From the NCBI GenBank assembly GCA_009926065.1, contig RFPP01000002.1:29713-93712 (forward strand): a stretch of DNA of 64,000 nt, given 5' to 3'. The notes under the pieces were generated by a model. It ran no database searches. It was not told the DNA's origin and saw only the letters and a program-made list of their open reading frames with translations. The stretch is from Flavobacteriaceae bacterium. GTDB taxonomy: Bacteria > Bacteroidota > Bacteroidia > Flavobacteriales > Flavobacteriaceae. This document shows, one piece after another, positions 9,204 to 63,003 of this stretch. A program made the position numbers and the translations under genes. How positions within the stretch are numbered: position 1 is the first letter of the stretch; the number at the start of each line of letters is the position of its first letter.

Positions 9204-9274
9204 TAGCCCCGATAGTAGAGGAAATCCCTCGCTTTTTGTGCGAGGATTGAAACGAATAGCGGGAAAAAGCTCTA
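9204..9274 (+). ncRNA. Structured intergenic repeat, copy A (probable Flavo-1 RNA motif family)
   Basis: TAGCCCCGATAGTAGAGGAAATCC-[stem-loop]-GGATTGAAACGAATAGCGGGAAAAAGCTCTA; conserved flanks shared with three other copies in the window. Family name is by recall, not by a covariance-model search. Confidence 0.7.
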
Positions 9275-9280
9275 AAAAAA

Positions 9281-9892
9281 ATGAAATTAATTTGTATCGG
9301 TAGGAATTATACCAAGCACATTGAAGAATTAAATAATGAACGTCCTGATGAACCGGTGGTTTTTATGAAGCCAGATTCGGCGATTTTGTTGAAGCAACAC
9401 CCGTTTGTAATACCAGAATTCTCAGAGGATATTCACCATGAATTGGAGGTTATTGTTAAGATTAACAAAGTTGGGAAATGTATTGAACCTAAATTTGCGC
9501 ATAAATATTATGATGAAATTAGTGTTGGAATTGATTTCACCGCGAGAGATTTGCAGCAAAAATTGAAAGACAAAGGACTTCCGTGGGAAAAAGCTAAGGC
9601 ATTTGATGGTTCGGCTGTGATAGGTGATTTTGTTTCAAAAAGTGACTTTAAATCGTTGGATAATCTTAATTTTGAAATGACCAACAACGGAGTTACGGTT
9701 CAAAAAGGCAATACGAGTTTTATGTTGTGGAAAATAGACGAATTGATAGCCTATGTTTCACAATTTTTCACCCTTAAAATCGGTGATATCATATTCACAG
9801 GAACACCTGAAGGGGTTGCTGTTGTTCGTCCAGATGATGTTTTGGAAGGATATTTAGAAGGAAATAAATTGTTTCGAATTCAAGTAAAATAA
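9281..9892 (+). CDS. Fumarylacetoacetate hydrolase family protein
   Basis: ICIGRNY, HHELEV, DFTARDLQ, WEKAKAFD, GDIIFTGTPEGV motifs. Confidence 0.92.
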   Translation: MKLICIGRNYTKHIEELNNERPDEPVVFMKPDSAILLKQHPFVIPEFSEDIHHELEVIVKINKVGKCIEPKFAHKYYDEISVGIDFTARDLQQKLKDKGLPWEKAKAFDGSAVIGDFVSKSDFKSLDNLNFEMTNNGVTVQKGNTSFMLWKIDELIAYVSQFFTLKIGDIIFTGTPEGVAVVRPDDVLEGYLEGNKLFRIQVK

Positions 9893-10251
9893 TGGCTCTA
9901 CATTACAATTTATCTAAAGTATATGCGATTTCAGAAAATGATTCTGATTTTGTTCATCAAATAATAAATTTATTTGTTTTAGATACCCCCATTCATTTGA
10001 ATCATATTAAGATTGCCATTGAAGAAAAAAACCATCAAAAATGTTATGAACATTCAAATAAAATAAAGCCATCATTGGATTTATTGAGTTTGAATATAGC
10101 TTTAGATGAAATTATTTTAATAGAAAATTGGGCAAAATCAATGGGTAAAAAGAAAGAAGTTATTGAACTTTATAAAAGCGTTTCTGATAGAATTGAGAAA
10201 GCTATTAAAGAAATCAAAAAAGATTTTAATTTAAATAATACTTTAATTTAA
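9892..10251 (+). CDS. Stand-alone Hpt (histidine phosphotransfer) domain protein, atypical active site
   Basis: All-helical 119 aa; xxKIKPSLDLL motif of Bacteroidota Hpt proteins, but Asn56 occupies the expected His position. Confidence 0.75.
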   Translation: MALHYNLSKVYAISENDSDFVHQIINLFVLDTPIHLNHIKIAIEEKNHQKCYEHSNKIKPSLDLLSLNIALDEIILIENWAKSMGKKKEVIELYKSVSDRIEKAIKEIKKDFNLNNTLI

Positions 10252-10275
10252 TAAAATTAGTTATCAATTCGATTT

Positions 10276-11529
10276 ATGAGAGCAGCCATTATAACCATTG
10301 GAGACGAAATATTAATTGGTCAAATAGTTGACACCAATTCAGGTTTTATTGCAAAATCGTTGGATAAAATCGGGGTTGATATTCATGAAATGATTTCAAT
10401 AAGGGATAATAAAAATCACATTTTAGAAACATTTTCTAAACTTCAAAATCAAGTAGATTTAGTATTAATCACTGGCGGATTGGGTCCTACAAAAGATGAC
10501 ATTACCAAACATACCTTTTGCGAGTATTTTGAAGATCAATTGGTTAGAAATGAAGAGGTTGAAAAGCATGTAATTGCTTTGATTGAAAAGGCAATGAATC
10601 GACCTGCTTCGCAAATGAACAAAGACCAAGCATTGGTTCCATCAAAATGTACTGTACTTCATAATGCTTATGGAACAGCACCAGGTATGTGGATGAAAAA
10701 AGGAAATACCGTTTATATTTCTTTGCCTGGAGTCCCTTATGAAATGAAATATATACTTGATAATGGTATTATTCCAAAAATAGTTAATGAATACAAGCGA
10801 CCTTATATTATCCATAAAACAATTTTAACTTATGGTCAAGGGGAGAGTTTGATTGCGGAACGAATTGAAGATTGGGAAAATAATTTACCTGAATATATTA
10901 AATTAGCCTATTTACCTAGTCCTGGAAGGGTGAGATTGCGACTTTCGGCTAGGGGAATTGATAAAGAATTATTGGAAAAAAAAATCAATGAAAATGTATT
11001 TTCATTAAATCAAATAATAAGAGATATTATTGTTGGTTACGAAGAGGATGAAACTATAGAGGTCATGTTGGGGCGATTATTAACAAGTAATAACTTAACA
11101 TTAGCAACAGCTGAAAGTTGCACAGGAGGGAAGATTGCTCAAATGATCACATCGGTTCCTGGTTCATCTAATTATTTTAAGGGAAGTGTGGTAAGTTATG
11201 CTACGGAAACTAAAATTTCGATGCTTGGAATATCTCCAGAATTAATCAAAGAGCATTCAGTTATAAGTTTTGAGGTGGCAAAAGAAATGGCTTTAGCTAT
11301 TAAAAATAGGATGAACACCGATTATGCTATTGCTACCACAGGAAATGCTGGACCTTCAAAAGGAGAAGGAAATTCAGAAATTGGCACCGTTTTTATAGCA
11401 ATTGCAACTCCAAATGACCTAATTGTAGAAGAATTTAATTTTGGTCAACCGCGAGTAAAAGTGATAGATAGGGCTGTAAATAAGGCTTTTGAAATGCTTC
11501 AGAAAGAAATTTTAAAAAATGTACTTTAA
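10276..11529 (+). CDS. cinA: Competence/damage-inducible protein CinA (molybdopterin-binding-like domain + PncC NMN deamidase)
   Basis: [42 protein letters not shown]. Confidence 0.93.
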
Positions 11530-11600
11530 TAATTTTGTATAATAGGTTTATTTTTGTTTCTTTGCACCCTGATTTTGAATAACGATAAAAGAAAAGCATA

Positions 11601-11837
11601 ATGTCAAGAGTTTGTGACCTTACTGGTAAAAAAGCAATGGTAGGAAATAATGTTTCCCACGCCATGAATAAAACTAAAAGAAAGTTTTCTGTAAACTTAC
11701 TTAAAAAACGTTTTTATCTTCCTGAAGAAGACAAGTGGATTACACTTAGAGTGGCTGCATCTACTATTAAAACTATCAACAAAAACGGAATCGCTGCAGT
11801 TTTGAAAAAAGCACAGTCAGAAGGTTTTATTAAATAA
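11601..11837 (+). CDS. rpmB: 50S ribosomal protein L28
   Basis: [29 protein letters not shown]. Confidence 0.98.
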
Positions 11838-11871
11838 TCCTCTCTTAAATCGAGAAGAATAATCATACAAA

Positions 11872-12054
11872 ATGGCAAAAAAAGGTAATAGAATTCAGGT
11901 AATTTTAGAATGTACTGAGCACAAAACTTCAGGTGTTCCAGGTACTTCTAGATATATAACAACAAAGAACAAAAAAAATACTCCAGATAGATTAGAGATA
12001 AAAAAATTCAATCCTATCTTGAAAAGAGTAACAGTTCATAAAGAAATTAAATAA
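11872..12054 (+). CDS. rpmG: 50S ribosomal protein L33
   Basis: [17 protein letters not shown]...[19 protein letters not shown]. Confidence 0.98.
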
Positions 12055-12129
12055 TTAGAGATTTTAATTTAATTCTCAAATGGTTTCATTTAGATTTATT
12101 AAAATACACAAATAAAAAAATAATTAGTC

Positions 12130-12282
12130 ATGGCAAAGAAAACCGTAGCAACATTACAGACATCTTCTAAAAGACTGTCAAAAGCTATTAAAATGGTAAG
12201 ATCTCCAAAAACTGGAGCATATACTTTTGTAGAATCTATTATGGCTCCTGAATTAGTAGACGAATTCTTGAAAAATAAATAA
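12130..12282 (+). CDS. DUF4295 protein (Bacteroidota ribosomal protein bL38)
   Basis: Below ORF-track cutoff; 50 aa MAKKTVATLQTSSKRLSKAIKMVRSPKTGAYTFVESIMAPELVDEFLKNK directly after rpmG. Confidence 0.88.
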   Translation: MAKKTVATLQTSSKRLSKAIKMVRSPKTGAYTFVESIMAPELVDEFLKNK

Positions 12283-12302
12283 TTTTCAATAGCATTATAT
12301 AG

Positions 12303-12340
12303 AAAAGCTACTTTCATTCGGAAGTAGCTTTTTTATTTTT
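12303..12340 (+). terminator. Rho-independent terminator of the rpmB-rpmG-bL38 operon
   Basis: AAAAGCTACTT / AAGTAGCTTTT 11-bp stem followed by a T-run. Confidence 0.8.
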
Positions 12341-12406
12341 TATATTTACCACTTAATTTATTGGTTTTAATCAAACCCGAAAATTCGGGCGATAAAATAT
12401 ATAATA

Positions 12407-13387
12407 ATGAGTTTTTTTAAAAAATTATTCTCTTCTGAAAAAAAAGAAACGAGCCTTCCTGAAGAAGTAAAAGCGTCATTGGATAAAGGATTAGAAAAAT
12501 CAAAGACTACTTTTTTTTCAAAACTAACCAAAGCAGTTGCAGGAAAAACTAAAGTTGATGCGGATGTTTTAGATCATTTAGAGGAAATTCTAATATCATC
12601 AGATGTTGGAGTGAAAACCACTCTTAAAATTATTGAGCGCATTGAAAACTATGTTTCTGAAAATAAATATCTAGGAACAGAGGAACTTAATGAAATTCTT
12701 AGAAATGAAATTGCGAGTCTTTTATCAGAAACCAATTCTGGCGAAGGAACTCAATTTGAAATACCAACAACAACAAAACCGTATGTATTAATGGTTGTAG
12801 GAGTTAATGGTGTTGGAAAAACCACTTCAATAGGTAAATTGGCTTATCAATTCAAGAAGCAAGGTTTTAATGTAATTTTGGGTGCTGCTGATACTTTTAG
12901 AGCGGCCGCTATTGATCAATTACAAGTTTGGGCTGATCGAGTAGGAGTTCCATTAGTAAAACAACAAATGGGAAGTGATCCAGCATCAGTAGCATTTGAT
13001 ACTTTGCAATCGGCTGTTTCTCAAAGTGCCGATATTGTTATAATTGATACTGCAGGACGTTTGCATAATAAAGTGAATTTAATGGCTGAATTAACTAAAG
13101 TTAAACGAGTAATGCAAAAGGTGGTTGGCGATGCGCCACACGATGTAATGTTAGTTTTAGACGGTTCAACGGGTCAAAATGCCTTTGAACAAGCAAAACA
13201 ATTTACTGCTGCAACAGAAGTGACTTCCTTAGCGGTTACCAAATTAGACGGAACAGCAAAGGGTGGTGTGGTAATTGGAATTTCAGATCAGTTTCAAATT
13301 CCAGTAAAATATATAGGAGTAGGTGAAGGAATTGAAGACTTACAAGTTTTCAATAAATACGAATTTGTGGATAGTTTCTTTAAATAA
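12407..13387 (+). CDS. ftsY: SRP receptor GTPase FtsY
   Basis: GVNGVGKTT, DTFRAAA, DTAGR, TKLDGTAKGG. Confidence 0.97.
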   Translation: MSFFKKLFSSEKKETSLPEEVKASLDKGLEKSKTTFFSKLTKAVAGKTKVDADVLDHLEEILISSDVGVKTTLKIIERIENYVSENKYLGTEELNEILRNEIASLLSETNSGEGTQFEIPTTTKPYVLMVVGVNGVGKTTSIGKLAYQFKKQGFNVILGAADTFRAAAIDQLQVWADRVGVPLVKQQMGSDPASVAFDTLQSAVSQSADIVIIDTAGRLHNKVNLMAELTKVKRVMQKVVGDAPHDVMLVLDGSTGQNAFEQAKQFTAATEVTSLAVTKLDGTAKGGVVIGISDQFQIPVKYIGVGEGIEDLQVFNKYEFVDSFFK

Positions 13388-13394
13388 TCAGCTG

Positions 13395-13571
13395 ATGAAT
13401 TTTCCATCAATAAAAAACATACCGCCTATTTATTTGTACTTAATAAGTATTTTATCATTTGTAATATCCAATTTAATTAGAGAAAAAAGTCCACTTTTTT
13501 ATGGAATATTTTTGGCTGTTGGATTAATTTTCTTCCTTTTAGGACTTTACAATCGTATTTCAAATAAATAA
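13395..13571 (+). CDS. Small two-TM membrane protein, hypothetical
   Basis: 58 aa from ATG 13395 (MNFPSIKNIPPIYLYLISILSFVI...FYGIFLAVGLIFFLLGLY); fills the gap after ftsY. The ORF-track start at 13323 overlaps ftsY. Confidence 0.6.
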   Translation: MNFPSIKNIPPIYLYLISILSFVISNLIREKSPLFYGIFLAVGLIFFLLGLYNRISNK

Positions 13572-14657
13572 TTACTGGTACAACGCATTGATTTTCTGCC
13601 ATAAGACTTCGTCAAATGTTGAAAGTGCTAAATTTGCTGAATCTGCAGCATCTCCCATTCGGATAACAACCATTTTTTTACTTGGAATAACGTAAATTTT
13701 CTGGTCGTCTTTCCCTAAAGCCATATACATATCGTTTGCTCCAGATGCAATTAAACTTCCATTAAATTGCAATTGAGTTTGAGGTAATCGGTAACTCGTT
13801 TTGCCGTTTAACCACCATAAATAACCGTAAGCTAAATTGATGTTTTGTGAAGTTGTTGTAGCTTGATTTAAAAAGCCAGAATTAATAACTTGAGTACCAT
13901 TCCAATTTCCATTGTTTAAAGCTAACAATCCAAATCTTGCCATGCTTCTTGTATTACTAAAATAGATTCGTAAACCTAAATTTGCTCCGGTTGCATTATA
14001 CCAAACTCCAGATGAACTCATACCAATTTTATCTCTAAGTTTAGTATTGAAATAGTTATTCCATGTTTGTCCGGTAGCTTGTTCTACCACATCTTGAAGT
14101 TTTACATATACATTATGATATGCCCATCTTGTTCCAGCATCAGCAACATATCGAAGATTGTTTGGAGAAACATCATCACCTAATGTATCATCCAAACCAG
14201 AGTCCATTTTTAATAAATTTTTGCAGGTAATCAGATTTTCTTTTGCTAATGGAGCACTTGTCCAACCTATTCCTATGTAGTCAGAAACCTTATTGTTAGT
14301 ATTAATAAAACCCTCCTGTTCGGCAATTCCTGTAACTGTTGAAGTCAACGTTTTTCCTGCACTATTCCATCTCCAAAGTGTAGATGCGGTATGACCATTA
14401 AAGTAATTTTCCATTACAATTCTACCATTTACAAGAATCATAAATGATTTAGTATTTTTTAATATTAAATAATCAATCAAAGGCTGAACCGCATTCTGAT
14501 TCCAACCTAAAGAAGAAATTGATTGAGTTTCCCAGTTATCAGATCCATTTGGAGGGAAATACATGGTATTGTAATTAATATTTGAACTACTATTATTGTC
14601 GTTTGAACAATTAGTAAATATTGTAAATATAAGTATGATATAAATTATTTTTTTCAT
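13572..14657 (-). CDS. Serine hydrolase, beta-lactamase/class C-like lipoprotein
   Basis: Lipobox FTNC, SxxK (SAGK), YxN (YHN), YGYLWWLN, ALGKDDQ. Confidence 0.88.
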   Translation of the reverse strand: MKKIIYIILIFTIFTNCSNDNNSSSNINYNTMYFPPNGSDNWETQSISSLGWNQNAVQPLIDYLILKNTKSFMILVNGRIVMENYFNGHTASTLWRWNSAGKTLTSTVTGIAEQEGFINTNNKVSDYIGIGWTSAPLAKENLITCKNLLKMDSGLDDTLGDDVSPNNLRYVADAGTRWAYHNVYVKLQDVVEQATGQTWNNYFNTKLRDKIGMSSSGVWYNATGANLGLRIYFSNTRSMARFGLLALNNGNWNGTQVINSGFLNQATTTSQNINLAYGYLWWLNGKTSYRLPQTQLQFNGSLIASGANDMYMALGKDDQKIYVIPSKKMVVIRMGDAADSANLALSTFDEVLWQKINALYQ

Positions 14658-14757: not shown

Positions 14758-14773
14758 TATAAATCACAATAAA

Positions 14774-24718: not shown

Positions 24719-25261
24719 ATGAAAAAAATAATCTTATTTACGTTATTATTAGTTGTAAACATAACTTTGGCGCAAAGATTGTTAACTCGTTCTGGGGAAA
24801 TTAAATTTGATGCATCTATGCCGAATTTAGTTGAAATTGCTGGAAAAAGCAACACTGTTTCAGCAATTTTAGATCTCCCAACTGGACAATTTGCAACAAG
24901 TGTGATAATTAAATCGATACGTTTCAAAATACCTTTAATGGAGGAACATTTTAATGAGAATTATATGGAATCTTCTAAATTTCCTAATTCTACATTTAAA
25001 GGAAAAGTTATAGGTTTTGATGCTACAAAATTATCTATTAATAAAGTTGCTTTTGATATTGAAGGCGATTTAACTATTCATGGAGTAACTAAGAAAGTAA
25101 AAACTAAAATCTATTTATCTTCAAATGGAAGTAAGGTTGCTGCAACAGGAAATTTTACGGTTCATGCACAAGATTATGGAATTGAAATTCCAAAACTTGT
25201 AAAAGATAAATTTGCTGAACAGATTAAAGTTAGCTTTAATTTCGATTTAGATTCAAAATAA
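24719..25261 (+). CDS. YceI family protein
   Basis: Signal peptide; LMEEHFNENYMESSKFPNSTFKG, GDLTIHGVTKKV, DYGIEIP. Confidence 0.9.
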   Translation: MKKIILFTLLLVVNITLAQRLLTRSGEIKFDASMPNLVEIAGKSNTVSAILDLPTGQFATSVIIKSIRFKIPLMEEHFNENYMESSKFPNSTFKGKVIGFDATKLSINKVAFDIEGDLTIHGVTKKVKTKIYLSSNGSKVAATGNFTVHAQDYGIEIPKLVKDKFAEQIKVSFNFDLDSK

Positions 25262-25269
25262 GATTTATT

Positions 25270-25298
25270 AAAAAAACCGCGATAATCGCGGTTTTTTT
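25270..25298. terminator. Bidirectional terminator
   Basis: AAAAAAACCGCGAT-A-ATCGCGGTTTTTTT perfect inverted repeat between convergent genes. Confidence 0.88.
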
Positions 25299-25304
25299 AA
25301 TACT

Positions 25305-25784
25305 CTATCTGTTTCTCCTAGAATAAGCTTCTTGTTGTTTTTTAGCATCTTCAGCAAGCAATTTGTATTTTGCTTTTTGATCTTTATTAAGTAAAATCAT
25401 AATATCAAGATCCATTTTTTCGGCAATTGCTTTAAGCTCATTTGCTTTTTCTTCATTTCCACCTTCTTCTTTTTTTATTATCGCATTTTGCTTTTTTATA
25501 TTTTCAGTGATAATATTAGAAATAGCAATAACCTGAAGTTCATCTAGTTTTAGTTGTTGGTTGAGTCTATCGACCACTTTTTTTACCGTTTCTTCAATTG
25601 CCGGTTCTTTTGGTTGAGATCTTTGAGGTTGCATATTGCGGTTTCCATTCATTCCACCATTCATTCCACCACCCATTCCACCACCCATTCCACCTTGGCC
25701 CATTCCGCCTTGGCCAAATTGAGCTGAAATAGATTGCATTGAAAATAGTAAAATTAAAGTGCAAATTATTTTAATTGATTTCAT
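25305..25784 (-). CDS. Exported helical protein with Gly/Met-rich repeat (Spy/CpxP-like hypothetical)
   Basis: Signal peptide, GQGGMGQGGMGGGMGGGMNGGMNG, then LKLDELQ and LNKDQKAKY helices. Confidence 0.7.
   Translation of the reverse strand: MKSIKIICTLILLFSMQSISAQFGQGGMGQGGMGGGMGGGMNGGMNGNRNMQPQRSQPKEPAIEETVKKVVDRLNQQLKLDELQVIAISNIITENIKKQNAIIKKEEGGNEEKANELKAIAEKMDLDIMILLNKDQKAKYKLLAEDAKKQQEAYSRRNR
25645..25715 (-). repeat. In-frame tandem repeats (12- and 15-nt units) encoding the G/M-rich tract
   Basis: TTCATTCCACCA x2, CCCATTCCACCA x2, CCCATTCCRCCTTGG x2 on the + strand. Confidence 0.8.
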
Positions 25785-27150: not shown

Positions 27151-27188
27151 CACTATTTATTTCTAGGAGCATAAAGTTGGTTGGTTTT

Positions 27189-27256
27189 TATGACGTTATT
27201 TCCCGCTATTCGCTATATCCACGCAAACACGTGGGATATCGCTACTATTGGGGCTA
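27189..27256 (-). ncRNA. Structured intergenic repeat, copy B (probable Flavo-1 family)
   Basis: Reverse complement TAGCCCCAATAGTAGCGATATCC(C)ACG-TGTTTG-CGTGGATATAGCGAATAGCGGGAAATAACGTCATA; shortest and most diverged copy. Confidence 0.65.
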
Positions 27257-27284
27257 ATTATTACGTTATTTATTCAATAAAATA

Positions 27285-30200
27285 TTATCTTTTAAGCGTA
27301 AAATGACCTTTTGCGGTTCTACCATCTTCAAAATAAATAGTATACCAATAATCATCTGATGGCAGGGGTTGACCATTAAAAGTTCCATCCCAACCTTTAC
27401 TGATAGGGCTTAATTCTTTCAATAATTTACCATAACGGTCAAAAATATAAATCGAAGTATTATAATTTTTTGTTGTAGTTAAACCTAGAACATTCCAAGT
27501 ATCGTTGAATCCATCAGCATTTGGAGTGAAAAATTTTGGAATACCAATAACATTAATTATTTGAGATGTTGTTCCACAACCATCCAGGTCTTTAACATAA
27601 ACGGTATGAACACCTGGAGCGACATCAGTAAAAATATTTATTGTTTGATATGCATTTGGATAATCTAAACTGAAAACATAATTGCCTAATCCTGTTACAT
27701 TTATTATTACAGTATTATTTTCACTCAAATCCATTATTGTTGGCATTTCAAAATGTGCTGCATCTGAAGCTATTACAGTAATTGTTCTAATTCTAAAACA
27801 ACCTGAAGAATTAATTACTTTAACGGTATAAATCCCTTCGGTATTTACATTTAATGTATAAGATGTTGCAGTTGGTATTACCACTCCATCTTTATACCAT
27901 TCATAAGTATAATTTGTTATTGGAGTTCCATCGGTTATTCCTGCATTCAATAACACAAAGAAAGTTGGATCATTACTACAAACTAATGTTGAAGTTTGTA
28001 ACTCAATCACCGGCACCGGATTTACAGTAAATGTAATTGTTTTAGTTAATTTACAAGTTGGATTAATCGGATTGTAAACAACAATTTTAATGTTCTTTGT
28101 TAATGTTACTGGCAATGGATTAGGCAGTGGTGTTGATAAAAGTACATTATTTTCATCATAATATTCAAACGCCATTCCTGACGGTTGATTAAAAGTTACA
28201 ATATCATGAATCGCTTGCGAAGTAGTAAAATCAAACTGACCGTTTTGCAATGCAGGGTCAGTTTCATCATCACAAATAGTAGTCAACGAAGCAGGTATTG
28301 TAAAATCAATGGGTGATTTATCAACTGTAAATTGAATAGTTGTATCATACCAGCAAGCTTGTGGCGTGGTATTGGTTACAACCGCTCTAATCGTTTGTGA
28401 AGTTGAGGAGAATGTTGCTGGAAATGGACTTGTAATTAAGTTATTATTTGAATCTCTCAGCGGGTTATTTGAAGAATCAAAATAAGTGACCGCAACTCCA
28501 GTTTGCCCTAGTAATAAATCGCTTTCTAAGTTAGCAGTATTAAAATTAAAAATACCGTCTGTATTATCGTCACATTGTCTAGGTATATTCACAGTATGTG
28601 CAAAAGGTTTTGCCTGAACATTTAAAGTAACCCAGGGTCCTAAGCCATAACAAGCATTCGTTAAATCGCTATCTACTCTCACCCAAATATTTTGAGTTGA
28701 GGGATATCCTATGTTTCTATAGTTGGTTAAATTAGTTATCTCATTTTGTTGTGCTAAAGCATCAGCTCTATTTCTGTAATATTTAATAAAATAATTTCCA
28801 GTTGATGGTAATAAAGCTCTAATTGTTGGTTCAGTAGAACTAAAATCGAAGGATGCAACACCATCACGGTCATTATTGTTTGCATTGTTATTACCATTAA
28901 TATCTAAAAAATCATCGCATACCGCAGGCAAAGTAATATTATAGGTACTTGGAATATTTGGCGCAGCAACTTTTAAAGTTATTTTTGCAACTCTATAACA
29001 GCCATTAACAGTAGTTACTCTTGTCCAAATGTACATTAGGCTAGGAGTAGTATTTGTAAAAGCAAGTGGAGTAGTTATTTGATCAAAGGTCGGATTTGCG
29101 TTAGCTCCAGCCAAAGAAGTATAATAAGTAAATGTCTCATTTGCCGAATTAGCTGAAATTTGATTATTATTTACAGTCAAATTGAAAGCGGTAATTGCAT
29201 CTAAATCATCGTCACATTGAACTATTGTAATGTCATTAATTACAGGTAATGGATTTACAATTACCTCCGAAATATTGGTAGAAACAGTTCCACAATTTCC
29301 ATTGGCATAAGTGGCAACACAATAATAATATAAAGTTCCTACTACAGAAGTTATTGGGGTATAACTGAGTGAAGTTGCCCCTGAAATTATTGTTCCTCCT
29401 GTATAGGAATTAACAGTATTAGAATACCATTGATAAGTTGGAGTTCCAGTACCATTAATGAAGGCGGTTGTTAAATTAACCGGAGTGTTATTTATACAAA
29501 TAGACTGACTCGCTAATGGTTGTATGCTAACTGATGGATTATTAACTGTTTGAACATTTACTACAGGACTTGTTACTAAACATCCTAATCCAGATTGAGC
29601 AATTACACAATAGTAAGATTGGGTACCTACATTTGAAGTTGAAGGTGTGTAATTTGCATTTGTTGCTCCTACTATCGAGGGGTTGGGAGAGGTATTATAC
29701 CATTGGTAATAATAAGTTCCCACTCCTCCTGTTGGAGTTACAACCAAATCAGTAGGGGTTGTTCCTTGGCAAATAATTTGATTATTTGGGGTAATCGTTA
29801 CAGTTGGATCAGCGACAACACGAACTAAAGCGGTATTTGTTGGTACACTTCCACAATCTAAACCTGAAAAAGAAACCGTTGCATAATAATAAAAGTCGCC
29901 TCCAATATTGAAAGTTGGAGTGAAATAAGAAGTGTTTGTAGCACCTGAAATAGCATTACCACTGGTTGTATTGTTAGTACTTGTACTGTACCACTGAATT
30001 GATGGTGTTCCTAATCCTCCTGAATAAGCTATCGTAAATGGAGCAACAGCTGCTCCCACACAAATATCTTGAGTTGTTAAAGGTTGAGTGGTTATGGTTT
30101 GAACAGGATTTACAACTAAATTAAAGGTAGTAGTTAAAAAACACCCTGAGGCTGCCATAGTTAACCTTACATAAATTATTCTATTTCCTGTATTTATGGA

Positions 30201-32213
30201 AGTGATACCATTTTGACCCAAATTAGCATCATTCTGAGAGGTATGATAAGTAACATTAACACCAGTTTGTGAACCCAATACTTCACTATTTTTTAATAAT
30301 AAGTTGAAAGTTGCAGTTCCATTTGTCGCACTTCCGTCAACGGCATCATCACATTTTGAAAAATCAGTAATTGCATTTATAATTGGAACTGCTGAATTAT
30401 TTACATTAACTGTAGACGATACTAATGGACAAGCTCCAGTGGCAGGAAAACTATATGTATATATCCCACCTGCGTCTACCGCTGGATTAAAAACTCCAGT
30501 TCCAGAACTTAAAACTGGACTCCATGTACCTCCAACTTCTGCGGTACTTCCTAACAAACTGAATAAATTATAAGAAGGTGTAGTTACACACGATGAGGTA
30601 TTTGTGCTAACTCCAGGATTTTTAATTTGCTGAATAGTTACATTTACTTTTACACTTATAGTAGTTAGTGAAGTATTACAAGATTTTGTAAACGTGTATA
30701 TGTATTCCCCAGGTAAATTAATTGAAGGATCAAAAATATTTCCATTTAGTGGGGCTCCACCCGCTGGAACAGTCCATGTTCCACCTGGTCCAGGATTTCC
30801 ATTAATTACCGTGAATAAATCTCTAGTACTATTGGAACAAACTGTGACATTTGTATCCTGAGGGGTACTTCCAAAACCAGAATAGTAACCTGCAAATCCA
30901 ACAGCTGATCCCTGAAATCCAAAAACCCCAACGGCTAAAGGTCCTGTTGAAGTAATATTAAGATTTCCAGATTGATTTGAAACTCTGTAAGATACCCAGT
31001 CGGTATTTCCCAAAACTGCTTGAGCTTGGGATGTAGGTACAGCAACTCCATTAATTGATATTGTTGCGTTAGAGTAGGTCAACATCATTAAGTCAGTTGT
31101 GTAAGTATTGGTTCCTATTTGATTTACATTGGGAATATTAACAGAATTTTGGAAGAAACAGCTCAAAGGAGGTATAAAATTTAATCCGGAGGTAGCAGTG
31201 TCTGAACCCCCACCTAATAATTGATATGCGAAAACAGGCTTACTTGATCGAACATATATATTACTATTATTTGTGCCTTGATAATAAGAATTAGGAACTA
31301 AATAATATTGGCCAGCATTTAATGTAGTTACCGGAGTTGTACTTCCATTTACAAAAATAGCTGTGTTGTCTTCGTGAGCAACTATTAAGGGATTTTCCAT
31401 AGCAGGACTACCATTTCCTTCTATAAATATATAATCGGTTCCAATTTGGGTTGCAGAAACTATTTGGTCTAAAGTTAGGTCAGCCCGACCATTTGCAATA
31501 CCACCTAGTGCATTTCCAGTATTTACAGAAACAGGTTTATCTGAAGTGATTAAACCGCCTATAATACCATCTAGATTAGCAGTTACATTACTGTATCCAC
31601 TAAATACAATGCACTCTCCAGCATTTAATGTAAATGTTTGTGTGTCGGCAGTTATATTTCCAGCACCACTTGAAAAAATTACCCCAGTATTATAATTTGA
31701 TAAAGTTACCGTAGTATTATTTTCAGTTGCCATAACACTGGCTACAAAGTTTTTTCTATTGTCTTGACTTTCATTAATTGTACATCCTAATCTAAAACTT
31801 GTTCCAATTCCTGGTTTTCCTTTTGAAATAATAGTTTCGGCATGACTTGCATGTCGCATTCTAAAACTAACATAAAAATCTTTTGGTCCTTGAAGAATTA
31901 CTCCTCTTCCTGAAACAACGGTATTTACATCACTAAGACTTAAAAACATTTTTGTAGGTTGTCCAGTACCTATTGTAAAAAAAGCTGGGCTGGTTGCCGA
32001 AATAGTAAACGGAGAACCGGCATAAGGTGTTCCATTTCCATCAGTTGCTGTTACTTGAAACGGAGTAGTTTCATTGGTTGACATGTAGATATATTGGTCA
32101 GAAATAGCAGTGTTATCTCTTGAATGTAAAGGCGGTATCCAGTGTTTATTACTCAACTGAGAAAATGAAATCGCAGTAGCGAATAATAAAAACAATAATG
32201 CTAATTTTTTCAT
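27285..32213 (-). CDS. Large T9SS type-B cargo (IgGFc-binding-like N-terminal domain, Ig-like repeats, gliding-motility CTD); probable adhesin
   Basis: ATG 32213 gives a signal peptide; repeated ICxG...YQWY...GAT...YTP...YYYC and CDD..DG..xF(N/D) modules; CTD IPKFFTPNADGFND...FDRYGK...WDGTFNG...DDYW...GHFTLKR. Confidence 0.9.
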   Translation of the reverse strand: MKKLALLFLLFATAISFSQLSNKHWIPPLHSRDNTAISDQYIYMSTNETTPFQVTATDGNGTPYAGSPFTISATSPAFFTIGTGQPTKMFLSLSDVNTVVSGRGVILQGPKDFYVSFRMRHASHAETIISKGKPGIGTSFRLGCTINESQDNRKNFVASVMATENNTTVTLSNYNTGVIFSSGAGNITADTQTFTLNAGECIVFSGYSNVTANLDGIIGGLITSDKPVSVNTGNALGGIANGRADLTLDQIVSATQIGTDYIFIEGNGSPAMENPLIVAHEDNTAIFVNGSTTPVTTLNAGQYYLVPNSYYQGTNNSNIYVRSSKPVFAYQLLGGGSDTATSGLNFIPPLSCFFQNSVNIPNVNQIGTNTYTTDLMMLTYSNATISINGVAVPTSQAQAVLGNTDWVSYRVSNQSGNLNITSTGPLAVGVFGFQGSAVGFAGYYSGFGSTPQDTNVTVCSNSTRDLFTVINGNPGPGGTWTVPAGGAPLNGNIFDPSINLPGEYIYTFTKSCNTSLTTISVKVNVTIQQIKNPGVSTNTSSCVTTPSYNLFSLLGSTAEVGGTWSPVLSSGTGVFNPAVDAGGIYTYSFPATGACPLVSSTVNVNNSAVPIINAITDFSKCDDAVDGSATNGTATFNLLLKNSEVLGSQTGVNVTYHTSQNDANLGQNGITSINTGNRIIYVRLTMAASGCFLTTTFNLVVNPVQTITTQPLTTQDICVGAAVAPFTIAYSGGLGTPSIQWYSTSTNNTTSGNAISGATNTSYFTPTFNIGGDFYYYATVSFSGLDCGSVPTNTALVRVVADPTVTITPNNQIICQGTTPTDLVVTPTGGVGTYYYQWYNTSPNPSIVGATNANYTPSTSNVGTQSYYCVIAQSGLGCLVTSPVVNVQTVNNPSVSIQPLASQSICINNTPVNLTTAFINGTGTPTYQWYSNTVNSYTGGTIISGATSLSYTPITSVVGTLYYYCVATYANGNCGTVSTNISEVIVNPLPVINDITIVQCDDDLDAITAFNLTVNNNQISANSANETFTYYTSLAGANANPTFDQITTPLAFTNTTPSLMYIWTRVTTVNGCYRVAKITLKVAAPNIPSTYNITLPAVCDDFLDINGNNNANNNDRDGVASFDFSSTEPTIRALLPSTGNYFIKYYRNRADALAQQNEITNLTNYRNIGYPSTQNIWVRVDSDLTNACYGLGPWVTLNVQAKPFAHTVNIPRQCDDNTDGIFNFNTANLESDLLLGQTGVAVTYFDSSNNPLRDSNNNLITSPFPATFSSTSQTIRAVVTNTTPQACWYDTTIQFTVDKSPIDFTIPASLTTICDDETDPALQNGQFDFTTSQAIHDIVTFNQPSGMAFEYYDENNVLLSTPLPNPLPVTLTKNIKIVVYNPINPTCKLTKTITFTVNPVPVIELQTSTLVCSNDPTFFVLLNAGITDGTPITNYTYEWYKDGVVIPTATSYTLNVNTEGIYTVKVINSSGCFRIRTITVIASDAAHFEMPTIMDLSENNTVIINVTGLGNYVFSLDYPNAYQTINIFTDVAPGVHTVYVKDLDGCGTTSQIINVIGIPKFFTPNADGFNDTWNVLGLTTTKNYNTSIYIFDRYGKLLKELSPISKGWDGTFNGQPLPSDDYWYTIYFEDGRTAKGHFTLKR

Positions 32214-32245
32214 AATAGTAATCACAAAGTGTAAAAATAGAATAT

Positions 32246-38215: not shown

Positions 38216-38223
38216 CAAAGTTA
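38216..38223 (-). promoter_or_regulatory. Putative -7 box (TAACTTTG)
   Basis: CAAAGTTA on the + strand, 23 nt upstream of ATG 38193. Confidence 0.5.
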
Positions 38224-38278
38224 AAATTAAATTTCAGATTTCGATTTCCCATTTCCGATTTGTTAATAAGATTTTTTT

Positions 38279-38363
38279 TAGGAGCTAATCCGGCTATCAT
38301 TCCAAATCCGCTTTATTTTTGCTTACGCAAAATAAAGCGGGATTTTCCCTTCTATCCGGGCTA
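38279..38363 (-). ncRNA. Structured intergenic repeat, copy C (probable Flavo-1 family)
   Basis: Reverse complement TAGCCCGGATAGAAGGGAAAATCC(C)GCTTTATTTTGC-GTAA-GCAAAAATAAAGCGGATTTGGAATGATAGCCGGATTAGCTCCTA. Confidence 0.72.
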
Positions 38364-57087: not shown

Positions 57088-57567
57088 ATGACATTAGATA
57101 AAATATTAGCAATAGCAGGAAAACCAGGTTTATTTCAATTAAAGATTCAAACTCGCACCGGTTTTGTTGCTGAATCATTAATTGACGGTAAGAAAATTAC
57201 AGTAGGATTAAAAAGTAACGTGAGCTTACTATCTGAAATTTCTGTTTATACCTATACTGAAGAAAAACCCTTGACTGATATAATGAGAACTATTGCAATA
57301 AAAGAAGATAATGGACCTGCAATTTCTCATAAGGAAGAAAATTCAAAACTAATTGATTATTTTCTAGAGGTTCTACCTGATTATGATCAAGACAGAGTTT
57401 ATCCATCAGATATTAAAAAAATATTAAATTGGTACAACATGCTTCAAGCCAAAGGTTTAGTTTCTAAAGAGGAGCAAAAAAAAGAAGAGGATAATTTAAA
57501 CATTGAAAAAAATCAAGTTGCTTCTGAAAAAGTAGATAAACCTGCTAAAAAAACAAAATCAAAATAA
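57088..57567 (+). CDS. DUF5606 family protein
   Basis: MTLDKILAIAGKPGLF, SLLSEIS, YDQDRVYPSDIKKILNWYN; ATG 57088 preferred. Confidence 0.8.
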   Translation: MTLDKILAIAGKPGLFQLKIQTRTGFVAESLIDGKKITVGLKSNVSLLSEISVYTYTEEKPLTDIMRTIAIKEDNGPAISHKEENSKLIDYFLEVLPDYDQDRVYPSDIKKILNWYNMLQAKGLVSKEEQKKEEDNLNIEKNQVASEKVDKPAKKTKSK

Positions 57568-57590
57568 TATTTACAATTCAATATAAATTC

Positions 57591-57630
57591 ATCCTGTCAA
57601 GAGGTAATCCTGACGGGATTTATTATTTTT
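57591..57630 (+). terminator. Hairpin / probable terminator before mazG
   Basis: ATCCTGTCA / TGACGGGAT stem (one G-U pair) followed by a T-rich tract. Confidence 0.5.
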
Positions 57631-57663
57631 ACAGTTAATACTTCAAGAATTTTAATATTTCAA

Positions 57664-58437: not shown

Positions 58438-58471
58438 AATAATTTACCTTACTATTTTATAATTTTTTCAT

Positions 58472-58498
58472 AAAAAAAACCTCGCATTGCGAGGTTTT
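58472..58498. terminator. Bidirectional terminator between mazG and DUF349 gene
   Basis: AAAACCTCGCA-T-TGCGAGGTTTT inverted repeat. Confidence 0.85.
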
Positions 58499-58515
58499 AA
58501 ATCAAAAATTTAGTT

Positions 58516-60516
58516 TTATGATTCTACATTTATACTTCTAATTTGTTTTAGTTTTTCTTTCCAAACTTCAAGTGTTTCTTTTTGAATTTCAATGTTCTTT
58601 CTAACTTCTAATACAATTGAATTTTCTTTCTTCGCATTTTTAGTATTTGTAAAAAACTGAATATTATTTTCTAATTGAAAAATTTCATTTTGTACTTCAT
58701 CAATTTTACGCATGATGAATATCTTTTCATTTTCAATTTTTCGAGTATCATTAGATTCAGATAAATTACCAACTCTATTTGAAAATCGAGCCATTTCAGT
58801 TTCTTTTTTGCTTAAACTCAATTTTTCAAATAAGGCATCTAATATTTTATTAAATTTTCCTTCTATATGGCGTCTTGTGTAGGGTACTTTTCCGAGAGAT
58901 TTCCAATTTTCAATATGCAATTTTATAGCTTCTAAATCTGCTTTGTGTTCACCAATTAGTTCGAATTCTCTGAGTTTTTCTAAATATGCTTTCTTTTTCT
59001 CAAATGATTCAATTTCTTCCGAATTAGATTCATTTTTTTGAGCTTTTAAAACTTCAAAATAATGATTACAAGCATCTTTAAATTCAGACCAAATAGAATC
59101 TGAATATTTTCTTGGTACATGTCCAATCAATTTCCATTCTTCTTGAATTTTTTTCATTAAAGGAGTAGTAGCTGCAAAATCCTCACTTAATTGAAGTTCT
59201 TTTGCTCTTTTAACTAATTCCATTTTCTTGATTAAATTCTCTTGCTGTTCTTTTTTAATTTCCTTATAAAACGAATTTTTAAAACTATTAAAATTACGGA
59301 CTGCAGTTTTAAATTCATTCCAAATACTGACATTAACTTCGGCGGGAACTTTCCCTGTTTTTAAAAAGGCAGCTCTTAGATTTTCAACTTTATTTATTTG
59401 TGATTGCCACTGACTATGTGAATGAACTTTTTCTTTAGCCAAAACTTCAATCTGTGAAATTATATCTTTTTTATATTCTAAATTTTCTTTTTCTTTTGAT
59501 CGTTGCTCTTCGGATAACAATTCACGTTTATCGTGCATTAATTTGGTTAATTCACTGAATCGATTCCAAATTTCTTCACGATGTTCTCTTGAGACAGGAC
59601 CAATATCTTCTTTCCAAATTTTGTGTAAATCTTGTAATTCACGGAAAGCTTTACTAATATCTACTTCACCTATTAATTCTTCAACTCGTGAAATTATTTT
59701 AAGTTTTTGTTCTAAATTGTATTTGAAATCAAGGTCCCTAGCTTCACGATCTAAGTGTAAATAATCGTAAAAATTTTCAACGTGAAAATGATAATTATTC
59801 CAAACGTGATTGTATTTATCTTTGGGTATTGGTCCAGCATTTTTCCAACGCTCTCTTAATTCGTTAAAATGTTTAAGGGTGTCTTTTATATTTTCTTGAG
59901 GATTTATTAAATCTTTTAATTCCTCAACTATAGCTAAACGAATTTCTAAATTGTTTTTTAAATTATTTTGTAAATTCTTAAAATGAACATTCTTTTTATC
60001 TCGATAGCTAGAATATAATTGATCAAATTTTGATTTTAATGGAAAATCATAATAAAAATTGTCTTTTGATTCCGAGTTCTCATTATTTAATTCTTCCTTT
60101 TTATCTTCAATAAATAGATAATATTTAGCTAAAAATGAATTTTTTATTTCTTCAATATGATCCTTAACAGACATTATCTTTTCGATACCACTTAATTTTT
60201 CCAATTCAGAAATCAATTCTTCCATTGTTAAGGATTCGTAATCCAACATAGGAATTTCATGACGTTCTTTAAGCGATTCATCTTCATTTTCAGCCGCATT
60301 TTCATTTTCGATAGCAGTAATAGCATCAATAGTTTGGTAATCTATCACATCCTTAAAATCTTTGATAGTTTCAATTTCAACCTCTGCAACTGGCTCCGTC
60401 TGGGCTTCATCAATTTGAAGTATTTCTCTTTGAATTACTTCTTGTGATTCAATTTCTAAATTTCCATCTGTCTCGTTTGATTGAACTGACAGGTTATCAT
60501 TCTTTTCTTCTAACAT
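58516..60516 (-). CDS. DUF349 domain protein
   Basis: Acidic N-terminus; repeated W...GP(I/V)P/S...W..F modules (WKNAGPIP, WKEDIGPVS, WKLIGHVP, WKSLGKVP). Confidence 0.85.
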   Translation of the reverse strand: MLEEKNDNLSVQSNETDGNLEIESQEVIQREILQIDEAQTEPVAEVEIETIKDFKDVIDYQTIDAITAIENENAAENEDESLKERHEIPMLDYESLTMEELISELEKLSGIEKIMSVKDHIEEIKNSFLAKYYLFIEDKKEELNNENSESKDNFYYDFPLKSKFDQLYSSYRDKKNVHFKNLQNNLKNNLEIRLAIVEELKDLINPQENIKDTLKHFNELRERWKNAGPIPKDKYNHVWNNYHFHVENFYDYLHLDREARDLDFKYNLEQKLKIISRVEELIGEVDISKAFRELQDLHKIWKEDIGPVSREHREEIWNRFSELTKLMHDKRELLSEEQRSKEKENLEYKKDIISQIEVLAKEKVHSHSQWQSQINKVENLRAAFLKTGKVPAEVNVSIWNEFKTAVRNFNSFKNSFYKEIKKEQQENLIKKMELVKRAKELQLSEDFAATTPLMKKIQEEWKLIGHVPRKYSDSIWSEFKDACNHYFEVLKAQKNESNSEEIESFEKKKAYLEKLREFELIGEHKADLEAIKLHIENWKSLGKVPYTRRHIEGKFNKILDALFEKLSLSKKETEMARFSNRVGNLSESNDTRKIENEKIFIMRKIDEVQNEIFQLENNIQFFTNTKNAKKENSIVLEVRKNIEIQKETLEVWKEKLKQIRSINVES

Positions 60517-60653
60517 TTTTAAAATGTTTAAGGTTTATAATTTTAAAGCACGAAAGATAACAAAACACTAATCAAAATTCAAAGTTTTTTTTTAATTTAA
60601 ACATTTTTAAGAAAAAAAAGTAGGTAAATTACGCTATTATTTAAATATAGGTA

Positions 60654-61394
60654 TCAAATACCCCAAATTTCCCAAGATTTTTCGGCTTGAATTGTTAACA
60701 TTTCCAAGCCATTTTTTATAACCGCACCTTGTTCCTTTGCTTTTTTTAGAAACAAGGTTTCTGCGGGATTGTAGATTAAATCAAAAGCTATATGTTTTGG
60801 AGTGAAATTTTCATAAGGGATTTCGGGACAAGAATTGGTATTTGGAAATGTACCTAAAGGAGTGCAATTAATGATTATATGAAATTCTTCAAATGTTTTT
60901 TCGTTTACTTGGTTGTAACCAATTGCATCAACATTAGTGCTTCTAGACACTAATAAATAGGGAATCTCTAATTGTTTTAATGCATAAGCTACTGCTTTTG
61001 AGGCTCCTCCAGTTCCTAAAATAAGTGCTTTTTTGTGATTTACATTTAATAATGATTTTATTGATTTTTGGAATCCAATGTAATCGGTATTAAACCCTTT
61101 TAATTTTCCTGATTTTGAAATTTTTATTGTATTTACTGCTCCAATTTCAGTTGCTATTTTTGATAATTTATCTAAATATGGTATTATAGCTTCTTTATAG
61201 GGTATAGTTACATTTAGTCCACAAATATTTCGATTTTGTTCTATATATTCAGGGAATTCTTCTATTTTTTGAAAGTCTAAATTTTCATAAGAAAAATCTA
61301 CTAAATTTAATTTTTGAAATTTATCAATAAAATAGCTTTTTGAAAAAGAATAATTGATATCTTTTCCAACTAATCCAAATTGGTATTTTGTCAT
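60654..61394 (-). CDS. aroE: Shikimate dehydrogenase
   Basis: YSFS, NVTIPYK, GAVNT, NTDY, LGTGGAS, DLIYNP, NGLEML. Confidence 0.93.
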   Translation of the reverse strand: MTKYQFGLVGKDINYSFSKSYFIDKFQKLNLVDFSYENLDFQKIEEFPEYIEQNRNICGLNVTIPYKEAIIPYLDKLSKIATEIGAVNTIKISKSGKLKGFNTDYIGFQKSIKSLLNVNHKKALILGTGGASKAVAYALKQLEIPYLLVSRSTNVDAIGYNQVNEKTFEEFHIIINCTPLGTFPNTNSCPEIPYENFTPKHIAFDLIYNPAETLFLKKAKEQGAVIKNGLEMLTIQAEKSWEIWGI

Positions 61395-61401
61395 TCAAAA
61401 A

Positions 61402-62796
61402 TTATTTTAAACTTTTATTGATTGCATTTTGTACCATTTTACGGGACCAAACTACTGGGAATAATTTTTCAAGTAGAGTATTATTACTAAAACTTAACCT
61501 TAGTCCGTTACTTAAATGGAAAATTGCTTTAGTATTATCGTGAATCATGAAATACAATCCTGCTAAACGGTATTCTACTTCATATTCTTCTGGGAAGTAT
61601 TCTGAAGCTTGTAACAACGCATGAATTGCGCTTTCAAATTCTCCTAAAAACTGAAGAATATCAACCCAAAATAACCATGTATCTAATTGGTAGTCTCCAA
61701 ATTCAACAGCTTTTCTATAGCCAAATTCAGCTTCTTCAAATAAATTTAGTTCTTTATTTATAGTTGCAAAACGCTTCCAATAAAAACGATTTTGGTTATC
61801 TATATTTAGTGCTTTATTTACATAATAAAGTGCCTTTTCGAATTTTTTTTGTCTAACGTAAAAATCTGTTATTGCAATCCAACCTTTATCCAATAAAGGG
61901 TCTTCGTGAACAGTTTTATTGAAATATTTAATTGCTAACGATTTTTTTCCTAGTTTTTCATAACATTTCCCCATTCTTAATAAAGCATAGGAAGTAGGTT
62001 CGTCCAATTCAATTGTTCTGGTGTAACTTTCTATAGCTTTTTCATACATTTTTAGTCTTTCGTATGTTTTGGCTTTTTCCATGTATGCTCCCAGAAATTC
62101 ATCATCTATTAAGGTTGCATATTCAAAAGCACGAAGTGCTTCTTCGTATTTTTTTAAACCGTAATTCAACCTTCCAATTTGGTGCCAAGCAATTTCACTG
62201 TAAGGATTCTTGTTGGTATATTTGGTAAGATATTCTATTGCTTCTTCGTTTTTATCCAAAAATTCAAAGCAATAAACCACATTATATAGTGCTGCTTGGT
62301 CTTCAGTATCTTCTTCTAAACACTTAATAAAATTATCTTTGGCTAATTCTAATTTATCCATGAAAAGGTATTCCATTCCAATTAAATTATAAACATCTGC
62401 ATAATCATCAGTATATTTTAAGGCAATTTGAAGAAGTTCTACGGCTTTTTCGTGGTTGTCTTTTTTTGAATAAATGTTGGCTTTTTGAATATAAATTTCT
62501 TCATTGGTTGGTTCTATTGCATACAATTCGTTAAGTAACTTTTCAGCAAGATCTAATTTATCTTCAAAAACTAGCATTTCTACTTGAACTAATTTTAATC
62601 CGGTGGATCTTGGGTGCTGTTCCAAAGCTAATTTAAGGGCTTTTTTTGCCAAAGCTGACTTTCCCATGTCAAGGTAGTGAAGAATAATTTCTTCAAATTC
62701 TTCGGAATCAAAAAAGAGTACTTTGTTGGTTTTCAACATCGACTCAAACTTTAATAAGGATAATTTGTACTCGTCTTCTTCGTCGCTGATATGCAT
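61402..62796 (-). CDS. Tetratricopeptide repeat protein
   Basis: Multiple TPR-like units; conserved Bacteroidota N-terminus FESMLKTNKVLFFDSEEFE. Confidence 0.88.
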   Translation of the reverse strand: MHISDEEDEYKLSLLKFESMLKTNKVLFFDSEEFEEIILHYLDMGKSALAKKALKLALEQHPRSTGLKLVQVEMLVFEDKLDLAEKLLNELYAIEPTNEEIYIQKANIYSKKDNHEKAVELLQIALKYTDDYADVYNLIGMEYLFMDKLELAKDNFIKCLEEDTEDQAALYNVVYCFEFLDKNEEAIEYLTKYTNKNPYSEIAWHQIGRLNYGLKKYEEALRAFEYATLIDDEFLGAYMEKAKTYERLKMYEKAIESYTRTIELDEPTSYALLRMGKCYEKLGKKSLAIKYFNKTVHEDPLLDKGWIAITDFYVRQKKFEKALYYVNKALNIDNQNRFYWKRFATINKELNLFEEAEFGYRKAVEFGDYQLDTWLFWVDILQFLGEFESAIHALLQASEYFPEEYEVEYRLAGLYFMIHDNTKAIFHLSNGLRLSFSNNTLLEKLFPVVWSRKMVQNAINKSLK

Positions 62797-62918
62797 GCTT
62801 ATTTTGTTTAATTTATCCTTTAATAAAGGTACATAATATTATTTCAATGTTAGAATTAGAGACTTTTTTTTGTGAACAATTTAATTAACAAAAAACAGTC
62901 TTATAATAAGTAATTTTT

Positions 62919-63003
62919 TAGCCCTGATAGAAGGGAAAATCCCTCAATATTGCTTAAGATGAAGCAATATTGAGGATTGGAAGGATAGCAGGAATAGCTT
63001 CTA
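62919..63003 (+). ncRNA. Structured intergenic repeat, copy D (probable Flavo-1 family)
   Basis: TAGCCCTGATAGAAGGGAAAATCC(C)TCAATATTGCTT-AAGATG-AAGCAATATTGAGGATTGGAAGGATAGCAGGAATAGCTTCTA. Confidence 0.72.

Follow-up and report, generated by a model that had tools for sequence, protein, structure and literature searches.

Flavo-1 (RF01705) copies in a Flavobacteriaceae contig: probable structured, dispersed intergenic repeats of Flavobacteriales

A 64,000-nt stretch of Flavobacteriaceae DNA (contig RFPP01000002.1, positions 29,713 to 93,712; hereafter the window), whose nearest relatives are metagenome-assembled genomes (MAGs) of Flavobacterium, carries four dispersed copies of a small structured element, referred to below as copies A to D. 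The first base of their TAGCCC start lies at 9204(+), 27256(-), 38363(-) and 62919(+), two copies being on the forward and two on the reverse strand. All four are intergenic; copy D is antisense to both of its flanking genes, one for a TPR protein and one for a class-III aminotransferase, and copies A, B and C are in sense with theirs. An earlier note, made from the letters of the window, had described these elements, and the arms that it described are present at all four positions. The match is exclusive to them: a degenerate 15-nt pattern for the 5' arm (TAGCCCNRATAGNAG, at most one mismatch) hits the window exactly four times, compared with a mean of 0.04 matches in shuffled versions, and none of 100 shuffles reached four. 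The resemblance to the Flavo-1 RNA motif that the note suggested proved to be true membership, as in an Rfam cmscan search all four copies match RF01705 over the full model (positions 1–76) and exceed its curated gathering score of 42 bits. No fifth copy was found in the window, either by an Rfam search with a permissive E-value or by a purpose-built covariance model that recovers the four. The family, the consensus fold and the taxon (intergenic DNA of Flavobacteria/Bacteroidetes) are the same and nothing separates the window copies from Flavo-1; the four sequences are ordinary members of this already known family. With one copy per 16 kb in the window, the high genomic copy number that had been predicted is plausible, and 27 matches above 30 bits occur in 282 kb of unrelated Flavobacterium loci.

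Flavo-1 was introduced in a single descriptive sentence by Weinberg et al. 2010 (PMC2864571), who list it as covarying, with one stem that varies and without any associated genes. Guerin et al. 2021 (PMC9723704) reported matches in sense or antisense of transcribed regions, with many outside them, and the motif also appears, with no function given, in a review from 2022. It is among the most abundant Rfam entries typed as small RNA (sRNA) and has been without a function since 2010; our literature search found no published treatment of Flavo-1 as a repeat element.

Conservation of the fold was assessed in two samples. A pattern scan over one genome per species gave 119 loci (cited below, together with all other loci, by L numbers), nearly all from Flavobacterium, with Chryseobacterium, Halpernia and some Bacteroidota MAGs in addition. 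Our own covariance model R1, which has 91 positions and includes the 3' tail, matches 139 copies in these loci and the window. In the alignment of the 139 copies, 96.6% of pair cells hold standard pairs, compared with 84% in shuffles. One pair of the outer stem (P1) covaries among window copies A, C and D, as the earlier note had claimed, being C-G in A, G-C in C and U-A in D; in copy B it is C-G, next to a pair mismatched as A.C. Across the alignment this pair is CG in 72 copies, UA in 37, AU in 15, GC in 7 and UG in 3. Because the 5' arm was fixed by the search pattern in the 119 loci, the pair count was repeated on 30 copies found within 80 loci that had been fetched through a protein, with no DNA pattern involved. 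There, 95.5% of cells were paired and both sides had changed in 17 of 19 pairs, including pairs within the conserved core. The proposed selection on structure is thus upheld by far larger alignments than the four copies on which it was first based.

From its base upwards, the core consists of P1, a block of A.G, U-A, A-U and G.A, a purine mismatch, a second block of A.G, G-C, U-A and G.A, another mismatch, an A.G, the inner stem P2 (AAUC/GAUU), a bulged C, usually a UUUU/AAAA helix, and then a free apex. The result is an irregular hairpin with two 2-bp mini-helices between P1 and P2, bracketed by conserved A.G/G.A mismatches. In all four window copies ATCC-C has one C more than GGAT has G, so that one C is left unpaired at the base of the inner stem, again as described earlier. 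G.U and U.G together occur 52 times on the modelled strand of the 139-copy alignment, compared with 14 for A.C and C.A, which indicates that the modelled strand is the one that folds. Minimum-energy folds of copies A, B and C recover the consensus; by the same method the complementary strand folds nearly as well, about 2–4 kcal/mol weaker. An additional outer helix that would pair the 5' flank with the A-run tail was considered and rejected, as it shows no covariation and C opposite A predominates. Rfam also scores as Flavo-1 a sub-family in which P1 is flipped from CCC/GGG to GGG/CCC and a second hairpin is added. In this architecture, seen at L040:1629-1721 and in L149, L153, L171 and L172 at ~2480-2612(-), an outer helix GCGTGA/TCACGC encloses the GGG..CCC core and the second hairpin, and the TAGCC start and AGCTCC tail are missing.

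The arms had been placed correctly by the earlier note, but the element does not end where the note had it end; it continues 3' into a conserved tail. The Rfam model stops 8 nt past P1; the AGCTCCT/A-run tail, the leader on the 5' side and the long-tail class are not part of it. Almost every copy is followed by A(A/T)(A/T)AGCTCC(T), also written A(A/T)TAGCTCCT, and then by an A-run, and the tail sets in 4–5 nt past P1 in 102 of 116 copies. In ~11% of copies, window copy B included, an insert of ~30 nt stands ahead of CTGCTCCT; this long tail is similar to the leader. On the 5' side, the flank is C-rich (nCCC-type) in just over half of the copies, many of which have a leader of ~22 nt upstream with the consensus (A)AAG-TTCTTATGAAAAC-n3-TGCCC, and about a quarter of all copies have a T-run immediately 5'. 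A search for solo leader-tail units without a core gave no convincing matches with a regular expression that was too loose. Although the leader of some copies contains an ATG and their tail a TAA, a small open reading frame (ORF) running through the element was rejected, as lengths differ by non-multiples of three and many leaders have no in-frame ATG.

The apical hairpins of the four window copies are unlike in sequence and in length, as the note had stated. Their description as unrelated does not extend across species, where a small number of types, GTGCCGGGGTTCGGCAC and CTTTTTTTCTTTAAAAAAG among them, appear repeatedly. The apex, and in one case the 3' arm, can also host other small palindromic repeats. 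An identical 48-nt insert is found at the same point of the 3' arm in two unrelated loci (L092:5446-5581 and L114:6006-6143), and palindromic repeats of the types GTCATACTGAGCTTGTCGAAG.. and CCCTTCGAC..GGGTGAC are nested in the apical loops of L025, L035, L057, L058, L075, L095 and L098.

Table 1. Coordinates of the four Flavo-1 copies and of the genes beside copy D in the window
Feature	Position	Strand	Remarks
Copy A core: TAGCC, P1 (CCCG/CGGG), AUAG/AUAG block, P2 AAUC/GAUU with bulged C, apex CUCGC...GCGAG	9204..9263	+	Rfam 59.4 bits; R1 80 bits; minimum-energy fold equals the consensus
Copy A 3' tail, AAAAAGCTCT and A-run	9264..9281	+	Reaches ATG (9281) of FAA-hydrolase-family gene (ORF map; Pfam)
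Copy B core, 55 nt, shortest apical hairpin, ATATCC variant of P2	27202..27256	-	Rfam 45.1 bits; R1 48.6 bits
Copy B long tail, AAATAACGTCATAAAAACCAACCAACTTTAT-GCTCCT, long-tail class	27165..27201	-	
Copy C core, AGGGAAAAUCC / GGAAUGAUAGC sub-variant	38290..38363	-	Rfam 44.4 bits; R1 75.6 bits
Copy C tail, ATTAGCTCCT and A8	38272..38289	-	
TPR protein gene	61402..62796	-	ORF map, Pfam
Copy D core, sub-variant as in copy C	62919..62992	+	Rfam 49.0 bits; R1 74.8 bits
Copy D tail, AATAGCTTCT and A4	62993..63006	+	Ends 4 nt before aminotransferase stop codon
Class-III aminotransferase gene	63011..63991	-	ORF map, Pfam

Copies are confined to intergenic DNA, occur in all types of intergenic region and take either orientation. 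Among those with genes on both sides, 43 are tandem-antisense, 32 tandem-sense, 18 divergent and 17 convergent (heuristic gene calls), a distribution that random intergenic placement would give. No association was found with local GC skew or gene-strand bias; GC skew is a weak proxy of the replication strand and tracks gene strand at r=0.73. The neighbours are housekeeping genes, among them valS/metG, thrS, fumC, nuoH-nuoI, nrdA, clpP-tig and fabG, and many copies touch start or stop codons. The Bacteroidetes -7 box TAnnTTTG is present on the same strand within 100 nt upstream in 11 of 135 copies, no conserved upstream motif was found beyond the leader, and no U-tract follows the hairpin on either strand. 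With a T-run before the hairpin and an A-run after it the flanks resemble a reversed terminator, and copies can therefore sit inside operons such as nuoH-nuoI. The idea that copies ride on terminators was rejected, as a terminator-like hairpin on the opposite strand abuts only 9 of 132 tails. Public transcript assemblies add little: RNA-seq contigs of F. psychrophilum break at the repeat arms and show arms inside transcripts, nothing more; metatranscriptome contigs for the window organism are fragmentary and derived from relatives; four poly-A RNA runs from 2026 hold 0 bacterial reads.

Several sites hold a copy in three to six species, in sense as well as antisense orientation and with unbroken arms; antisense examples are the fumC/peptidase site (five species) and the clpP-tig site (three species). 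Copy C likewise has an orthologous copy in L105, with 87.5% identity. The apical hairpin at conserved sites is swapped among the few recurrent types, and at the clpP-tig site an A-U pair of P1 is exchanged for G-C (L095/L098/L022). Apices thus differ between orthologous sites, and the complex apex GTGCCGGGGTTCGGCAC is found at many non-orthologous ones. One genome carries near-identical copies on different contigs (L009 and L072). Copy D was also considered as an orthologue of the F. psychrophilum copy that lies next to bioA; this was rejected, the aminotransferases being paralogues with only 35–42% identity.

Turnover is apparent around copy A. Flavo-1 is present at the orthologous site in 8 of 80 species, and the whole spacer has been replaced between close relatives. 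The two closest relatives without Flavo-1 (L121 and L122, both at 1430-1495) have instead a different, G+C-rich composite palindrome (AGCCCCCTAAACCCCGAAAGGGG...CCCCCTTCGGGG..GGGGGGCT) where the window and L120 have copy A. Upstream of the FAA-hydrolase-family gene, many Flavobacterium species have long imperfect palindromes (L124-L199, ~1340-1500), which are made of tandem heptamers (CTGAAAA, CTTAGAA, CAGTGTT and similar) with an A-rich end before the ATG, and in L128, L132, L136 and L137 the apex of a heptamer-built palindrome of this kind is occupied by Flavo-1. Two further polymorphic Flavo-1 sites lie within the 3.6-kb region of copy A. At one of the two, a clean empty site is seen in the window, L120 and L121, where the T-run of a terminator is directly joined to the next promoter; its filled counterpart in L122 and L123 carries ~130 nt (leader, core and long tail, on the reverse strand) between two T-runs. 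In the window this junction belongs to a textbook intrinsic terminator at 8325-8400 (AAACCCATCTGTTTAATCAGGTGGGTTTTTGTTTTTTT), immediately followed by a TAnnTTTG box.

We suggest, with a probability of roughly 60%, that Flavo-1 is a structured repeat dispersed through the intergenic DNA of Flavobacteriales, comparable to repetitive extragenic palindromic (REP) sequences and bacterial interspersed mosaic elements (BIMEs), to enterobacterial repetitive intergenic consensus (ERIC) sequences and to BOX elements, rather than a set of sRNA genes or a gene-specific cis-regulator. The discrete RNA gene implied by the earlier note finds no support, given the lack of an own promoter, the random orientation and the repeat-like turnover between species. 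Should Flavo-1 prove to be a structured repeat of the genome instead of an RNA gene, the sRNA censuses made for Bacteroidota would have to be corrected, annotators of Flavobacterium genomes would gain a marker of repeat-driven intergenic turnover, and the search for a function would shift to a protein that recognises a folded single strand. The purine-mismatch core and bulged C may form the recognition module for such a partner protein, which would use a single-stranded intermediate (DNA or, less likely, RNA) to copy, insert or homogenise the element, preferentially at A/T-runs; any influence on neighbouring transcripts, as a passive hairpin at their 5' or 3' side, would be of secondary importance. 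The more specific proposal, that the substrate is handled by an unrecognised Flavobacteriales-specific system independent of RAYT, whose protein reads the folded core and then copies the element, inserts it at A/T-runs or gene-converts it, is a tentative one that we hold to be possible at best. Were it true, Flavo-1 would represent a novel type of structured, non-autonomous repeat whose apical stem is a free cargo position colonised by other small palindromes.

A number of observations weigh against the repeat interpretation. No transposase, recombinase or reverse transcriptase is found next to any copy. Terminal inverted repeats are absent, the leader and tail ends not being inverted repeats of each other, and general tests for target-site duplications are negative (p=0.13 and p=0.54). 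In favour of a repeat, direct repeats in the flanks, counted from the first bases after the tail, score at least 8 in 9.3% of copies compared with 3.2% in permutations, and their mean was reached in 0 of 200 permutations. This modest excess concerns A-rich repeats of variable length, and both the A-rich flanks and the inclusion of orthologous copies, which are not independent, inflate it. Comparison of close strains in four metagenomes revealed no presence/absence polymorphism at copies B and C, which means that any mobility must be slow. Arms that stay intact at orthologous sites over large divergence, together with the A-U to G-C exchange, could equally reflect purifying selection by the host on a function. 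Further to that, the 119 loci are a biased sample, fetched by an exact 5'-arm pattern, and the genes around the copies were called by ORF heuristics. The one RAYT-type gene family that was found has a different REP at its flanks, and Flavo-1 is absent within 1.2 kb at all 80 loci of its relatives, ~30 of them from Flavobacterium.

The main rival explanation is that Flavo-1 is a cis-acting RNA module for an RNA-binding protein or RNase that controls the stability, processing or translation of the mRNA containing it, in which case sense copies alone would be functional and antisense copies would be by-products. It would account for the large surplus of G.U over A.C on the modelled strand and for the conserved A.G/G.A internal loops, which are typical of protein-binding RNA. 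Persistent sense sites also lie directly before start codons (nuoH-nuoI, tRNA-synthetase genes, a prephenate-dehydrogenase-like gene and copy A), arms occur inside long transcripts in RNA-seq assemblies, and some copies are in 5' untranslated regions (Guerin 2021, PMC9723704). However, antisense copies are no rarer than sense copies (43 vs 32) and are equally persistent with intact arms, as at fumC/peptidase and clpP-tig; the neighbours share no common gene class, and many F. psychrophilum matches fall outside transcribed regions (PMC9723704). We therefore regard a cis-RNA module as rather unlikely. Far less credible is an independent sRNA gene at each copy, which is how Rfam types the family ('Gene; sRNA') and which finds a point in its favour in the orthologous copies L015 and L048, with a TAnnTTTG box ~12-16 nt upstream. 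Against it stand the scarcity of same-strand promoter boxes (11/135), the lack of any conserved upstream motif except the leader, the overlap or contact of copies with start and stop codons of their neighbours, and the lack of a terminator after the element, since the element ends in an A-run.

Among readings in which the element is recognised as DNA or moved, a REPIN-like doublet mobilised by RAYT (a Y1 HUH transposase), as in gamma-proteobacteria, is suggested by the build of two imperfect inverted arms around a spacer, with TAG at the stem foot, by vertical, long-lived inheritance, and by the presence of highly conserved RAYT-type genes in Bacteroidota. A phmmer search of all ORFs in 1.25 Mb, with approximate Y1-transposase sequences as queries, found one Y1_Tnp gene, in L073 (Pfam E=5e-26), which is bracketed by a palindrome other than Flavo-1, CCACGGTTAAAACCGTGG. 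With this different REP at the RAYT gene and no Flavo-1 at any of the 80 relatives' loci, the RAYT hypothesis fails its defining test, and the strongly asymmetric arms and one-sided tail likewise differ from symmetric REPINs; we give it very little chance. Equally small is the likelihood that Flavo-1 is a retroposed structured RNA resembling short interspersed nuclear elements (SINEs), with a host reverse transcriptase primed on T-runs. The strand-specific fold, A-rich 3' end, variable length of the 5' leader, absence of terminal inverted repeats and insertion at A/T-runs with duplication of the run (the L122/L123 site) would all be expected of such an element, but no reverse-transcriptase gene is seen nearby, there is no promoter-bearing source gene, ~25% of copies have a T-run and not an A-rich duplication at the 5' junction, and the A-run is short and hardly varies in length. 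A binding site on double-stranded DNA, for instance for a nucleoid protein or a recombinase reading the repeated TAGC/GATAG motifs, would agree with four direct TAG(C) motifs spaced by ~9-12 bp, and its independence of the direction of transcription fits the orientation data; yet compensatory changes at many pairs and the asymmetry of G.U over A.C are not expected from a duplex site, and this too seems most improbable.

Among known systems, ERIC sequences (also called intergenic repeat units, IRUs) and BOX elements resemble Flavo-1 in being imperfect-palindrome repeats of ~100-130 nt between genes, found in either orientation and often co-transcribed, patchy between species, without a known transposase, and modular or mosaic with other repeats. 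ERIC/IRU and pneumococcal BOX belong to other host phyla and share no sequence similarity with Flavo-1, whose asymmetric core (A.G/G.A, bulged C) is much more strongly conserved and whose apex is freely variable. REP/BIME and REPIN-RAYT systems share the extragenic palindromes with a TAG-type foot tag, the compensatory stem changes, the long vertical persistence and the mosaic clustering with other repeats. Flavo-1 differs from them in its lack of a RAYT association, its asymmetric arms and its one-sided tail, and the genus also has a genuine REP/RAYT pair that is separate from Flavo-1; compared with a REPIN doublet, a TAG does precede P1, but the arms are asymmetric and not palindromes themselves. 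Unlike miniature inverted-repeat transposable elements, Flavo-1 has neither terminal inverted repeats nor target-site duplications of fixed length. A riboswitch or other cis-regulatory leader is at odds with the random orientation and gene-pair type and with the functional diversity of the neighbours. For an intrinsic terminator the flanks are in the wrong order on either strand, with a T-run or GCCC preceding the hairpin and an A-run following it. Integron attC sites resemble Flavo-1 in their conserved base helix, unpaired or mismatched centre, extrahelical base, terminal structure of variable length and strand-specific folding. In contrast to attC, Flavo-1 is scattered among core genes in both orientations and does not form same-orientation cassette arrays beside an integrase, and its primary sequence is far more conserved.

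The RAYT-type Y1 transposase gene (L073:1-840) encodes 153 aa (PF01797). Its flanking REP-like palindromes have the form CCACGGTT(A/T)AAACCGTGG, one of them beginning with TAGCCCACGG, so that a TAGCCC foot is common to it and Flavo-1. Relatives of this gene (L200-L279) are 61–100% identical and come from Flavobacteriia, Cytophagia, Chitinophagia and Sphingobacteriia; the family looks like a domesticated single-copy gene.

Copy B has a direct repeat at its two ends. The first 14 nt of its long tail agree in 13 of 14 positions with those immediately upstream of the core (27188-27201 and 27258-27271, on the + strand TTATGACGTTATTT and TTATTACGTTATTT), and a single T separates the upstream repeat from TAGCC; this could be a target-site duplication or a duplication between leader and tail. 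Directly upstream of copy B, at 27285-32225(-), lies an ORF of 1646 aa that carries an IgGFc-binding-like domain and a type IX secretion signal of the CHU_C type. Downstream of copy C (38220-38272, -) there are short AAATC/GGAAAT-type repeats (AAATCGGAAATGGGAAATCGAAATCTGAAAT), which are found likewise in the L105 orthologue, and similar runs of AAATTCCAAATTCC follow copies in L002, L037 and L069. Elsewhere in the window, at 25207-25362, weak sub-threshold Rfam matches (Leu, Trp and rimP leaders, STnc430) cluster on both strands between the convergent ORFs 24719..25261(+) and 25305..25784(-), and are probably due to a bidirectional terminator hairpin.

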